This document shows, one piece after another, positions 4,493 to 9,565 of a stretch of 22,710 bases of DNA (positions are counted from its first letter, which is position 1; the number at the start of each line of letters is the position of its first letter). Source of the DNA: Candidatus Woesearchaeota archaeon (GTDB lineage Archaea > Nanobdellota > Nanobdellia > Pacearchaeales > GW2011-AR1); NCBI GenBank assembly GCA_964505875.1, contig CAZDJT010000001.1, positions 1 to 22,710 of the forward strand, given 5' to 3'. The notes beneath the pieces were generated by a model. The model saw only the letters and a program-made list of their open reading frames with translations, searched no databases and was not told the origin of the DNA. The translations under genes and the position numbers were made by a program.

Positions 4493-5515
4493 CTATTTCC
4501 CGCCAAACCTTCTCTGTCTTCTTCCAAATTCTGAAACTGCTGTTTTCAAGTCAGAAGCGCCAAAATCTGGAAAATGCTTATCACTGAAATAAAGCTCTGC
4601 ATAAGCAGACTGAAAGGGCATCAGGCCGGAAGTCCTTAACTCTCCGGAAGTCCTTATAATTAAATCAGGATCTGGAATTCCAGCAGAATATAAATAAGAA
4701 TTAAAACTTTCCTCACTAATTTTTCCTTTCTTCTCTTCTAATATTTTATTCACAGCATTAAGAATCTCTTCTCTTCCGCCGTAATCAAGGCAAATCTGCA
4801 GATTAAACTCTCTGTATTTCTCAGTTTGCTTTTCCAATTCTTCTATAAGAGAAAGAAGTTTTCCCGGCAACCTATCTTTTCTTCCTAAATGTTTAAATCT
4901 TATCTTGTTCATCTCTAAATCTTCTCTGAATTTTTCTAAAACAGAATAAACTATCGCAAATATAGAATCAACTTCTCTCTTATCTCTCTTCCAATTCTCT
5001 GTTGAAAATCCCCAAAAAGTAATGTATTTCGTGCCGCATTTCTTTGCTTCTTCAATAAGCTCTTTAATATGTTCATAACTTGCAGCAGTATAGTGCCCTA
5101 AACTGGAATCAAGTCCATTCTTGACTGCCCATCTTCTATTTCCATCAGGAATTATAACTATATGCTCAGGTACTTCTTTTCTGCCGAAAACATGTTTGCC
5201 AAGATTAACCAAGCTCTTAGCTTTATCATAAAGTAAGTTGCCACTCGTAACAATTCTAAAATCTGGATAAATCTTCTCAGCTTCCTTCCAATAATATTTC
5301 ATTCCTGTAATCTTGGAAAATCCTGGTTCTTTTTGCAACCACAAAATAAACTCTTGCAATCTCCTTTCCTCTCCTTGAGCAATAATAAAGACTTCTCCGC
5401 TCTCTTTGTTCATGACTATTCCTTTAAGCTCATTTTTTTTAGCCTGCTTTGAGATAAAATATCTGAATCCAACACCTTGCACTCTTCCAAAAAGAGATAT
5501 TTCTAATTCTTTCAT
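4493..5515 (-). CDS. uppS: Fusion protein: N-terminal acylphosphatase-like domain plus cis-prenyltransferase (UppS / di-trans,poly-cis-polyprenyl diphosphate synthase)
   Basis: aa 1-90 contain FGRVQGVGFRYF (nt 5462..5488) and GIVMN, the acylphosphatase Arg and Asn motifs. aa 115-340 contain HIVIIPDGNRRWA (D at 5144..5146), FSTENWKR, IRTSGE and a C-terminal RRFG, the UppS motifs. It is one uninterrupted frame. Stop is TAG. The start overlaps the upstream DHH gene stop (ATGA). Confidence 0.85.
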   Translation of the reverse strand: MKELEISLFGRVQGVGFRYFISKQAKKNELKGIVMNKESGEVFIIAQGEERRLQEFILWLQKEPGFSKITGMKYYWKEAEKIYPDFRIVTSGNLLYDKAKSLVNLGKHVFGRKEVPEHIVIIPDGNRRWAVKNGLDSSLGHYTAASYEHIKELIEEAKKCGTKYITFWGFSTENWKRDKREVDSIFAIVYSVLEKFREDLEMNKIRFKHLGRKDRLPGKLLSLIEELEKQTEKYREFNLQICLDYGGREEILNAVNKILEEKKGKISEESFNSYLYSAGIPDPDLIIRTSGELRTSGLMPFQSAYAELYFSDKHFPDFGASDLKTAVSEFGRRQRRFGGK

Positions 5516-6603: not shown

Positions 6604-9255
6604 TCAAATTGCATAATAAATAGGATAATTATATTCGGTATATCCAAGATTGAGTTTGCTTATTTCATTCAAATCTGCAAGATCATTTGCTTTAATCATG
6701 CTTTGTGAGATTGTATACAGAACATTTTCCATATAAAGGCTTCTTTGAATTCTTTTTTGCCAATCATAATTATAAGGCTCATAATTTATTCCTCCAGGAA
6801 ATTGATCTATCCCCTCATTGCCTTGAGTTCCAGAATAATAATCAGAAGAGTAATCAATTCCATTAAGAGTGCCTTCTTCAACATAAGCTTTATTTCTCCA
6901 TTCATCTTCACCTATCTTTTCCCATATATTTGAATATTGATCTTTTCTTTCAGCTCCGGCAAGTTCATCTTTTGCAGGCCCATAAGTAGGCTTATATTCT
7001 TCAACATGCGTGATTTTTCCCTTTAATTCAATGCTATCTTCGTCAATATTGAATACATACGCTCCATTCCATTGTTTATATCTATTGCCATTAGAATATG
7101 AATATTGTATAGGCACAGACAGCAAATTTTTTTCTTTATTGAACAAAAATGCTTTATGCTCATAAAGTGCTTCAGAACTGCTCCAAGTCCATTGCCCATC
7201 GCTCTTAATAGCATACTTTGCTTTTTCTACTGGATTAGAAACATCTGAAACATCAAACAGCGCTATTTTAACTCCGGAAACTCTTCCTTCTTCATTTGCA
7301 TCCATTCCGATGCCTATAATAGTATCTTGATCATAAGGATGTAAATAGCTTGAGTACCCGGTTACTTTCAAATATCCTAAAATTTCTGGCTTCTCTGGTT
7401 TGGATAAATCAATAACATAAAGAGGATCTACCTGCCTGAAAGTCACCATGTAAACTCGGTCACTAATAAATCTGGAAGAATAAATTCTCTCTCCTTTTGC
7501 AAGATCTTCAACACTTCCAATTATTTCCAAATCTTTATTCAAAACATAAAGATGATTCAAGGTGCTATCTCCCCAGCTTCCAGTTGTAACTGCTGCTCTT
7601 AAATTGCCTTTATATTCATCCAATGAAAACTGATTTAATAAATGCCCGGGAACTTCACCGCTTGACTCGTATTTAACATTCAAGCCATCAATCTCAATTT
7701 TATGAATAATCGTTTTCTCGTATTCTTTGCTTATCTTTATTCTTGCTTTCTCAATTGATTCTGCCAATTTCTTATTAAAATCACTTCCTTCGTCAGTCTT
7801 GCCTAAACTTTTTGAATAAACAGCAACAACTTTCATAATAACTGACTGCTTTTGATAAATATAAGTATTAGATTCCAAGACTTCATTTATTTTCTCCTTA
7901 TATGATTGGGGCATTAAAGGAATAATTCCTTCTTTTATAAGAAGCTCAGCCTGTTTATCATAATCTATCCATTTTTGAGAAGTTAAATAAATATTATTCT
8001 CAGAAACATAAATTGTCCCGGACGCGCCAAGTAAATATGCTTTAACTTCTGCCTTCTCCTCTTCTAAATCAATTGCATTTACATAAGTAAAAACAAAATT
8101 TTCATCATATTCATCAGAATAGTAAATATCATCAATATCAACTGCTTTTTCAGTTCCATCTATAGAATACATAGGTCTTGGAATGCCATAATTATACAAA
8201 TACTGCTGCGATACTAAATATATAGTGTCTCCAATCATTCTTGCATCCATATAATTTCCATTGAATGAATAATTGCCTTCAGGAGCGGGTTTCTTCTTAT
8301 CTGAGATATCATAAACAAGCACATTTGTTTTACTCTGAGAATATCCTCCGCAGCCATATCCAGAACAAGGGGCAATAATGCTTTCAGCAACTGCTGCAAC
8401 ACCACCAATTGCTGCAGCACCACCAATAAGAGAATCACTGTAATAACTCTGCTGGCTCTGCATAAAAATAATTAACTTGTCTCCATTGACAAAAATATTT
8501 TGAGCTCCGCCAGTGATATTTATCTCGCTAACATTATGCATTTGTTCAGCAGGATAGGCATCGACAATAGCTAATTTATTTCCTGAAATAGTATAGATAT
8601 ACTTGCCATCATTCTTGACAAAATCTGGCTCATCTACCCCTTTAACTTGCACATTTGTCTGCGAGTAATCAGAAGCACTCTGGCTCCCGGATTTCATCTC
8701 TGCACTTGCTGTCTGAGCAGCTGTATTTGCAGAATCAGAAACCATACCGCCATATCCTTCTCCAAATCCTCTTCTGCTTCGATTCGCCTTTTCCTGCAAA
8801 TAGTTTTCAAGCTCTGCATACGATGAAAACTGATTAAATGAAGAGTCCTCGCTTCCATTGTTTATGGCTAGCCTATGACTTATCATTCCAATTAACGCAA
8901 TTACCAAGATAACCCCCAATAATGCGATTAACATAACAACAGGAACAGAGCTAATCATTTTTTTAGGGGAGATTAATATCTTCTTGTTAGAAAGTTTATA
9001 AGTGGGTATTTTCTTTCCTTTTATACTCCAGAAAAAGCTCTTGGTCTTTTCAATCAATCCAGATTCTAAAAGCTTAGCAATATTATAGCCAACAGTGTTC
9101 AATGGAATACTTAACGCTTGAGAAATGTCGCTTTCACTCATCTCTTTCTCAGCTAAAAGCCCTAAAATTCTCTTGCACGTTTTATTTGCCATTACTTCTG
9201 CAATTATTCCTGCTCTTGGATCGTCTATATCAAAATCTATTCGTTTATCGGTCAT
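6604..9255 (-). CDS. Membrane-tethered winged-HTH (ArsR/HTH_20-like) fused to a large extracytoplasmic beta-propeller domain (COG4880/Beta_propel-like)
   Basis: 883 aa. aa ~14-85 (nt ~9001..9216) read CKRILGLLAEKEMSESDISQALSIPLNTVGYNIAKLLESGLIEK, a wHTH pattern. A basic stretch KKILISPKK is followed by a TM segment at aa ~100-127 (nt ~8875..8958). The propeller family signatures follow: TNVQVKGVDEPDFVKNDGKYIY and KIALFDVSDVSNPVEKAKY...EALYEHKAFLFNKEKNLLSVPI. Confidence 0.8.
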   Translation of the reverse strand: MTDKRIDFDIDDPRAGIIAEVMANKTCKRILGLLAEKEMSESDISQALSIPLNTVGYNIAKLLESGLIEKTKSFFWSIKGKKIPTYKLSNKKILISPKKMISSVPVVMLIALLGVILVIALIGMISHRLAINNGSEDSSFNQFSSYAELENYLQEKANRSRRGFGEGYGGMVSDSANTAAQTASAEMKSGSQSASDYSQTNVQVKGVDEPDFVKNDGKYIYTISGNKLAIVDAYPAEQMHNVSEINITGGAQNIFVNGDKLIIFMQSQQSYYSDSLIGGAAAIGGVAAVAESIIAPCSGYGCGGYSQSKTNVLVYDISDKKKPAPEGNYSFNGNYMDARMIGDTIYLVSQQYLYNYGIPRPMYSIDGTEKAVDIDDIYYSDEYDENFVFTYVNAIDLEEEKAEVKAYLLGASGTIYVSENNIYLTSQKWIDYDKQAELLIKEGIIPLMPQSYKEKINEVLESNTYIYQKQSVIMKVVAVYSKSLGKTDEGSDFNKKLAESIEKARIKISKEYEKTIIHKIEIDGLNVKYESSGEVPGHLLNQFSLDEYKGNLRAAVTTGSWGDSTLNHLYVLNKDLEIIGSVEDLAKGERIYSSRFISDRVYMVTFRQVDPLYVIDLSKPEKPEILGYLKVTGYSSYLHPYDQDTIIGIGMDANEEGRVSGVKIALFDVSDVSNPVEKAKYAIKSDGQWTWSSSEALYEHKAFLFNKEKNLLSVPIQYSYSNGNRYKQWNGAYVFNIDEDSIELKGKITHVEEYKPTYGPAKDELAGAERKDQYSNIWEKIGEDEWRNKAYVEEGTLNGIDYSSDYYSGTQGNEGIDQFPGGINYEPYNYDWQKRIQRSLYMENVLYTISQSMIKANDLADLNEISKLNLGYTEYNYPIYYAI

Positions 9256-9276: not shown

Positions 9277-9284
9277 TATATAAA
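9277..9284 (-). promoter_or_regulatory. Archaeal TATA box for the wHTH-beta-propeller gene
   Basis: The minus strand reads TTTATATA, 22 nt upstream of ATG 9255. Confidence 0.5.
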
Positions 9285-9338
9285 CATAATGAAGACTCCA
9301 ATCATAATCGGAGCGATAAAGAAATAATCACAATAATA

Positions 9339-9346
9339 TTTATATA
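9339..9346 (+). promoter_or_regulatory. Archaeal TATA box for the small membrane protein gene (divergent from 9277..9284)
   Basis: TTTATATA ends 22 nt before ATG 9368. Confidence 0.5.
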
Positions 9347-9367: not shown

Positions 9368-9565
9368 ATGAACAAATGGACAGAACTTTTGCTTGGCCTT
9401 ATCTTAGTTATAGTAGGAATATTAATCTGGTCAATGACTCAAGGCTCCGGCTTCTGGGATTTCGGAACAGCAGCATGGGAAGTTCTTAAAGGCAGTGTTG
9501 TCTGGATAATTATAGGTCTTGGTGCCCTCTTCATCCTCCTTGGTATCTCTGATTTGAAGAGCTGA
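9368..9565 (+). CDS. Small two-TM membrane protein, function unknown
   Basis: 65 aa with two hydrophobic helices (LLLGLILVIVGILIW and VVWIIIGLGALFILLGI). It has its own TATA at leaderless spacing. Confidence 0.5.
   Translation: MNKWTELLLGLILVIVGILIWSMTQGSGFWDFGTAAWEVLKGSVVWIIIGLGALFILLGISDLKS

Follow-up and report, generated by a model that had tools for sequence, protein, structure and literature searches.

A membrane-anchored winged-helix protein carrying an extracytoplasmic beta-propeller, and a predicted operator in its own promoter, in DPANN archaea

A gene in a 22,710-nt stretch of DNA from a Candidatus Woesearchaeota archaeon (GenBank assembly GCA_964505875.1, contig CAZDJT010000001.1, positions 1 to 22,710; hereafter the window) encodes an 883-residue protein, P0001, in which a cytoplasmic DNA-binding domain is joined by a single membrane helix to a large beta-propeller outside the cell. 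Conservation across the family indicates that the inner domain, a winged helix-turn-helix (wHTH), most probably recognises a conserved palindromic site in the promoter of its own gene, and autoregulation by a membrane-tethered factor is well supported. In the reading that we favour, to which we assign a probability of roughly 60%, a tethered wHTH dimer that is still in the membrane binds this palindrome upstream of the transcription factor B recognition element (BRE) and TATA box, and the state of the ectodomain modulates the binding.

Results

Architecture and topology of P0001

The reading frame at 6604..9255 is open on the minus strand only, the plus-strand frame being full of stops; an initial annotation, made from the sequence alone, had given these coordinates correctly. 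Pfam matched the translation to HTH_20 (PF12840; aa 22-70, E = 8e-11, 42.1 bits against a cut-off of 27) and to Beta_propel (PF09826; aa 197-861, E = 7e-155, 517 bits against a cut-off of 22.4, covering profile positions 1-494 of 495). Every motif quoted in the initial annotation was found in the 883-residue sequence: the HTH stretch at aa 27-70, TNVQVKGVDEPDFVKNDGKYIY at aa 200-221, LFDVSDVSNP at aa 666-675 and HKAFLF at aa 700-705. In an AlphaFold2 model (mean predicted local distance difference test score, pLDDT, 79; predicted template modelling score, pTM, 0.71), aa 15-88 folded into a winged helix (pLDDT about 90) and aa 107-129 into a helix, followed by a conserved juxtamembrane helix (aa 146-163) and the propeller (about aa 200-870). 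Pfam, the model and conservation together delimit an ArsR/HTH_20-type wHTH at aa 14-88 (8992..9216, minus strand), within which aa 51-66 form the recognition helix and aa 68-88 the wing. The extracytoplasmic PF09826 propeller occupies aa 197-861 (6673..8667, minus strand; Pfam and AlphaFold2) and includes a four-helix insert at aa 432-512.

Hydropathy, the bias of basic residues and AlphaFold2 place one transmembrane (TM) signal-anchor helix at aa 104-124 (8884..8946, minus strand). Its residues 104-122 are strongly hydrophobic (Kyte-Doolittle 3.24), and exactly one hydrophobic helix lies at the equivalent place in all 44 aligned homologues. Across these 44 sequences the 15 flanking residues hold 170 Lys and Arg on the N-terminal side versus 33 on the C-terminal side, and the N-terminus is therefore placed inside, with the HTH in the cytoplasm and the propeller outside. 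The helix begins 100 residues into the chain, after a folded domain, and so acts as a signal anchor rather than as a cleavable signal peptide. The three-part layout of the initial annotation (cytoplasmic wHTH, single TM helix, extracellular propeller) is thus present in full by Pfam, homologue topology and AlphaFold2, and its positive-inside argument holds across the homologues; the N-terminal region gives a wHTH match, shows no cleaved signal peptide and is predicted to lie inside. Between wing and helix runs a Lys-rich tether of about 15 residues with a conserved, nearly invariant I-x-I-S-P motif (I93, I95, S96, P97). A second, weak hydrophobic stretch of P0001 (aa 276-294) is a Gly/Ala-rich insert absent from the other aligned homologues; this insert (window 8371-8431; aa 275-303) is modelled with low confidence and precedes the conserved propeller motif C-x4-C-G-G-Y-S.

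Fused and split forms of one module

A search of a 5.8-billion-protein collection returned 718 proteins matching P0001 at E ≤ 1e-5, and PF12840 and PF09826 occurred together in 109 of the 120 matches listed. The named carriers of the fusion among the matches listed were all DPANN archaea (Pacearchaeota, Woesearchaeota and Nanoarchaeota), and the fusion homologues are annotated merely as "beta-propeller domain-containing protein". A profile of the N-terminal 130 residues alone retrieved 288 clusters (50% identity) at E ≤ 1e-30 and 1019 at E ≤ 1e-10, of which the best 150 were mostly 180-225 aa long. In these short stand-alone regulators (wHTH-2TM, about 200 aa), the wHTH is followed by two membrane helices, TM1 and TM2, which are separated by about 50 aa of loop, and by a basic tail. 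In species-representative genomes and metagenomes, their genes often directly adjoin a signal-anchored propeller gene, lying immediately upstream of it (L004, L007, L008, L009, L019, L023 and L037) or immediately downstream (L002 and L006). In the fused proteins, TM1 of the regulator continues straight into the FSS-x-x-EL helix, which follows the signal anchor in unfused propellers. The architecture of P0001 is the fused form of a commoner module, a wHTH-2TM regulator gene next to a signal-anchored propeller gene; the fusion, which the initial annotation had described for this one gene, is common to more than 100 DPANN protein clusters.

The relation between the two forms was followed on a propeller-domain tree of 90 rows (IQ-TREE quick search, LG+G4, with Shimodaira-Hasegawa-like approximate likelihood ratio test (SH-aLRT) supports and without bootstraps). 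One clade (SH-aLRT 98%) comprised 14 fused, 11 adjacent and 1 truncated gene, with the fused and adjacent genes interleaved, and well-supported branches force at least five changes of state. Fusion or fission has therefore occurred repeatedly, which is a classic signature of proteins that work together.

The regulator could be sequestered in the membrane and freed by regulated proteolysis, a signal at the propeller leading to cleavage near or within the helix and release of the wHTH. The I-x-I-S-P motif of the tether could be a processing site, and a 15-residue tether makes access to DNA from the membrane sterically demanding. DPANN-type archaea are very small cells, however, so that most of their DNA would lie near the membrane, and the common stand-alone form has a two-helix anchor and no ectodomain with which to sense a signal. 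No protease gene was consistently linked to the regulator in the loci examined, and known transmembrane regulators, including the archaeal ArnR, act while membrane-bound (PMC10269533, PMC6396743). We consider release by proteolysis improbable.

Several further features of these loci were recorded. TM2 of stand-alone regulators (e.g. L004:3989-4591 and L008:2369-2965) carries a conserved W-L-W-F-L-x-G-A-L sequence and is followed by a short basic extreme C-terminal tail, an arrangement reminiscent of C-terminal sorting signals. A weaker, more distant relative, an HTH_20-TM protein of 238-307 aa, is encoded divergently from a PF09826 gene in L056, L059, L061, L064, L065 and L076 (Nitrosopumilus and others). 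PF09826 genes from metagenome-assembled genomes labelled Gammaproteobacteria, Parcubacteria and Saccharibacteria (L032, L049, L054, L074, L077, L039 and L052) form one well-supported clade with the DPANN genes L034 and L044; genes passed between ultra-small organisms, or contigs binned wrongly, could account for this mixture.

A palindrome at a fixed position before the regulator genes

When the 130-nt upstream regions of every regulator gene, whether fused or stand-alone, were aligned, a consensus palindrome emerged, CTTCAA-N6-TTGAAG, at -58..-41 from the ATG and just upstream of the TATA box. With at most two mismatches it occurred in 62 of the 82 unique regulator upstreams, versus 80 of 1140 upstreams of other open reading frames (ORFs) and 44 of 1640 shuffled sequences; with at most one mismatch the counts were 46/82, 38/1140 and 3/1640, respectively. 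The spacer was 6 nt in 60 of the 62 sites, about 48 of which started exactly at -58, and the TATA box at -29..-22 kept its position in 48 aligned promoters, the mRNAs therefore being leaderless or nearly so. The family promoter follows the layout nACTTCAA-N6-TTGAA(G/C)-n-n-TTCG-N5-TTTATAAA, with fixed geometry.

In the window, family geometry and a position weight matrix (PWM) place the predicted operator of P0001, CTCCGA-N6-TTGGAG in the minus-strand reading, at 9296..9313 (no strand assigned), -58..-41 from the ATG. The TATA box of the gene, TTTATATA, lies at the conserved position -29..-22 (9277..9284, minus strand). The spacer, the flanking TC-TTC and the distances to TATA box and ATG are all family-like, and the fixed geometry of the family supports the start codon assigned to P0001. 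This site was the top PWM match in the whole assembly (16.8 bits versus 14.1 for the runner-up), and the two closest relatives, L161 and L162 (74% and 64% identity), carry GTTCAA-N6-T[GT]GAAG at the homologous place. The other intergenic regions of the window, including those upstream of the giant lectin, Cys-rich and Gly-rich genes, reached at best 0.7 bits. The initial annotation had offered P0001 as a plausible regulator of the surface genes in the window, a role to which operator scores of at most 0.7 bits there, against about 16.5-16.8 bits at its own promoter, lend no support.

A second small inverted repeat, GAAG-n-CTTC, arises from the conserved TTCG that follows the palindrome, and one may speculate that a second dimer could sit over the TATA box through it. 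In L011 and L016 (Methanocellales / Halobacteriota), a perfect palindrome of another sequence, CTACGA-N6-TCGTAG, occupies the same promoter position, at about -56..-63, upstream of propeller genes; to judge from these sites, the operator sequence may have drifted while the regulatory layout was conserved. Half-site variants and recognition-helix residues showed no clear pattern of covariation.

DNA binding by the winged helix

Conservation along the protein is highest in the wHTH, with a majority-residue fraction of 0.73 versus 0.58-0.61 in the propeller and 0.41 in the membrane helix, and N53, T54, Y57, K61, L62, W76, S77 and G80, which belong to the recognition helix and wing, are invariant in the 44 homologues. 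P0001 carries both family signatures, P-[LI]-N-T-x-x-Y-N in the recognition helix (aa 51-58) and F-W-S-x-K-G-K in the wing (aa 75-81), and matches the family hidden Markov model at E = 3e-47. When two copies of aa 1-100 were modelled on a 34-bp operator, the complex reached an ipSAE of 0.68 in three runs, a score not validated for DNA; with three shuffled DNAs or an unrelated protein the score did not exceed 0.04. Residues 50-61 and 77-84, including invariant ones, contacted DNA on and beside the half-sites. We treat the complex model as suggestive only; the main argument for DNA binding is the association of the palindrome with this HTH family across about 60 diverged loci. These sequence data support the HTH as a working DNA-binding module and not a relic. 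The fusion to a DNA-binding domain proposed at the outset is accordingly upheld by the HTH_20 match above the Pfam cut-off, by the wHTH being the best-conserved part and by the promoter palindrome in about 60 relatives.

Another possibility is that the wHTH no longer binds DNA and serves as a cytoplasmic interaction or anchoring domain, the palindrome being bound by another factor. The NCBIfam ArsR/SmtB and SdpR models do score far below their cut-offs. Set against this, the palindrome accompanies the HTH family with fixed geometry, the recognition-helix and wing residues are invariant, and the complex model would put exactly those residues on the half-sites; we regard loss of binding as very improbable.

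Other genes carrying the operator

The operator and a TATA box, at -59/-60, also precede 12 of the 14 propeller genes that adjoin a split regulator. Among 59 archaeal propeller genes without a nearby regulator, 11 had the same arrangement (in Methanoperedens, Methanosarcinales, Woesearchaeota and Nanoarchaeota), and the best operator score in propeller loci labelled bacterial was 2.4 bits. The five searched genomes with operator-bearing unlinked propeller genes all encode a regulator homologue elsewhere, and the upstream regions of these distal homologues mostly lack a consensus operator. Near stand-alone regulators, the operator further precedes SIMPL/DUF541 genes (L091, L099 and L149) and a few genes for unnamed signal-anchored proteins. 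The SIMPL/DUF541 proteins (PF04402; L091:4186-4905, L149:1254-1988 and L099:4149-4874) are themselves signal-anchored, with operator and TATA box at about -59, and by this sequence criterion their genes are probably a second class of regulon member. From this distribution, the family regulon therefore comprises the regulator itself and envelope proteins, above all the propeller. A separate observation concerns L076, where an operator is placed between the divergent HTH_20-TM gene and the propeller gene.

Another reading is that of a self-limiting surface protein that receives no external signal, the propeller being structural or enzymatic and the wHTH providing homeostatic feedback on synthesis of the protein, comparable to trigger enzymes such as PutA, in which a membrane-associated task is coupled to autorepression. 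The promoter of P0001 is the sole operator found in its genome, the propeller gene of split systems is a target of the regulator and not obviously a sensor, and the other targets (SIMPL/DUF541) are likewise envelope proteins. Yet repeated fusion to the membrane helix of the regulator is easier to explain if the two proteins act together physically, other targets may have been missed in an incomplete genome, and feedback and sensing can coexist. We judge pure self-limitation rather unlikely, while taking it seriously.

A divergent gene for a small membrane protein

Divergently from the P0001 gene, the plus strand encodes a 65-aa two-helix membrane protein of the MNKW...ILLGISDLK family (9368..9565), a recurrent companion of the regulator gene. 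Its TATA box, also TTTATATA, lies at 9339..9346 (plus strand), 29 nt before its ATG, and is part of inverted repeat I2, which consists of the two divergent TATA boxes; the operator thus sits between two TATA boxes in a shared 112-bp region. The ILLGISDLK end of the protein is near-invariant. Homologues are encoded at most 1 kb upstream of 24 of the 77 unique regulator genes (6/18 fused and 18/59 stand-alone) and are divergent in 23 of these 24 cases; the gene is kept in the close relatives L161 and L162 and was never found in propeller-only loci. Neither Pfam nor NCBIfam has a family for the protein, and the ESM Atlas yielded only unnamed DPANN clusters and a weak likeness to LiaF-TM (0.71), on which we do not rely. 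A predicted complex of P0001 aa 1-200 with the 65-aa protein scored 0.00, a value taken neither for nor against an interaction. The protein could be a co-regulated target or a partner of the ToxS/TcpH kind.

Gene neighbourhood

The window is archaeal, with genes for TATA-binding protein (TBP), ATP-dependent DNA ligase, RadB, GatE, deoxyhypusine synthase (DHS) and Nre, and its G+C content is about 35%. The contig of the 74%-identity relative (L161) is largely syntenic with the window (Nre, TBP, DHH, UppS and DHS), and an acylphosphatase-UppS fusion at window 4493-5515 is conserved there (L161:7724-8800).

Discussion

A proposed mechanism

We propose that P0001 would remain in the membrane while two cytoplasmic winged helices occupy the palindrome at -58..-41, and that this binding would set transcription of its own gene and possibly also of the divergent 65-aa gene. 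The PF09826 propeller, normally a separate target gene of the regulator family, is here joined to the regulator in one polypeptide. DNA binding may therefore respond, by way of the single helix, to what happens to the ectodomain, be it ligand or contact, folding, oligomerisation or a change in abundance. Inferred in this scheme are binding as a dimer, the regulatory sign and the kind of signal. As to the sign, activation is slightly favoured by analogy, because the operator position matches that of the archaeal membrane-bound activator ArnR.

Several observations weigh against this mechanism. The window operator departs from the consensus at 3 of 12 half-site positions, although largely symmetrically, so that it stays near-palindromic, and its PWM score lies at the bottom of the training range (16.5-27 bits). 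A genome-wide PWM scan of the assembly (493 kb in 69 contigs) gave no other match with promoter geometry; it thus revealed no further target, and signalling beyond control of its own gene is unsupported. A tether of about 15 residues would require the promoter DNA to be held right at the membrane surface. As leads to a ligand, a Foldseek search of the PDB with the AlphaFold2 model gave generic WD40/DDB1/Utp propellers only (TM-scores at most 0.27), and a profile search of PDB sequences gave wHTH proteins only (PH1932, E = 1.6e-3) and none for the propeller. Sequencing runs found for the organism were DNA metagenomes only, with no RNA among them.

A more specific version would make the propeller a receptor that recognises a contact or ligand on the surface of the host cell of an episymbiotic-type DPANN archaeon. 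Covalently joined to a DNA-binding domain some 15 residues from the membrane, it would convert attachment into transcription without a diffusible intermediate, with the 65-aa protein as a ToxS/TcpH-like modulator; we hold this version to be improbable and offer it tentatively.

To our knowledge, almost nothing is known of signal transduction in DPANN archaea, whose reduced genomes carry few regulators according to previous reports. The module described here is compact and very widespread, and its operator can be predicted precisely. It is unusual for a regulator to be joined repeatedly to the product of its own target gene, and such fusions provide a natural experiment in the access of membrane-tethered factors to DNA. 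Work on the module would give a first functional handle on PF09826 propellers and on archaeal SIMPL/DUF541 proteins.

Comparison with known systems

Transmembrane transcription regulators combine a DNA-binding domain with a TM region and have a wide distribution in both domains (Demey et al. 2023, PMC10269533). P0001 has the DNA-binding domain (PF12840 and AlphaFold2) and at least one TM region (in 44/44 homologues) and is a transmembrane transcription regulator by this definition; it would regulate while membrane-bound, the evidence here being the conserved operator in its own promoter and the suggestive complex model. Full-text literature searches returned no paper describing this architecture or its palindrome.

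ToxR, TcpP and CadC share with P0001 an N-terminal cytoplasmic winged helix, a single membrane helix and an extracytoplasmic C-terminal domain, and regulators of the ToxR type act from the membrane and have small membrane partners, ToxS and TcpH (PMC10269533). Their DNA-binding domain is of the OmpR/PhoB type (Trans_reg_C), whereas that of P0001 is of the ArsR/HTH_20 type: Pfam gave no match to Trans_reg_C in P0001 even at E ≤ 1, the domain being of the HTH_20/HTH_5 type. The term "ToxR-like" used in the initial annotation is therefore apt for the layout, but membership of the ToxR/CadC-like family is ruled out by the lack of an OmpR-type domain. The cytoplasmic linkers of ToxR-type regulators are several times longer than the roughly 15-residue tether of P0001, and their outer domains are small, in contrast to a 680-aa propeller. 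P0001 further differs in its archaeal promoter (TATA/BRE) and in having as its ectodomain the regulated gene product of its own family.

Within the archaea, ArnR and ArnR1 of Sulfolobus acidocaldarius are membrane-bound HTH activators that use inverted repeats, TCGAC-N5-GTCGA, at -43..-84, upstream of BRE/TATA (PMC6396743). ArnR resembles P0001 in being archaeal, in its N-terminal HTH, in its membrane anchoring and in its control of surface structures, and its two C-terminal helices recall the stand-alone form; it differs in having a cytoplasmic HAMP-like and sensor domain between HTH and helices and no ectodomain (PMC6396743). Palindrome, lineage and targets (archaellum and pili for ArnR) all differ. 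Membership of the ArnR group is ruled out for P0001, which has no domain in the interval from the wing (aa 88) to the helix (aa 104) and whose one helix is followed by the ectodomain.

The HTH superfamily, palindrome autoregulation and membrane-linked activity are shared with SdpR and ArsR/SmtB autorepressors. No NCBIfam family, however, reached its cut-off for the regulator or the ectodomain (NF033788, ArsR/SmtB, 21.8 bits versus 55; NF033789, SdpR, 17.5 versus 100). An ArsR/SmtB metalloregulator identity is ruled out by that score and by the absence of the alpha-5 dimerisation/metal-site helix, the wing leading directly into the tether. The soluble SdpR is captured by a separate membrane protein, SdpI, whereas the HTH of P0001 is covalently tethered.

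On its outer side, P0001 is a full-length member of PF09826/COG4880 by its 517-bit match, with the FSS-x-x-EL helix after the anchor as in unfused proteins. Most PF09826 members, including those labelled bacterial and many from Methanosarcinales and Nitrososphaerota, have a signal anchor only and no HTH. P0001 is thus set apart by the combination of an ArsR-type HTH, a tether of about 15 residues, a 680-aa propeller, a TATA-proximal archaeal operator and the fusion of a regulator to its regulated product, and it is a real, although not unique, archaeal counterpart of the bacterial ToxR-type regulators.

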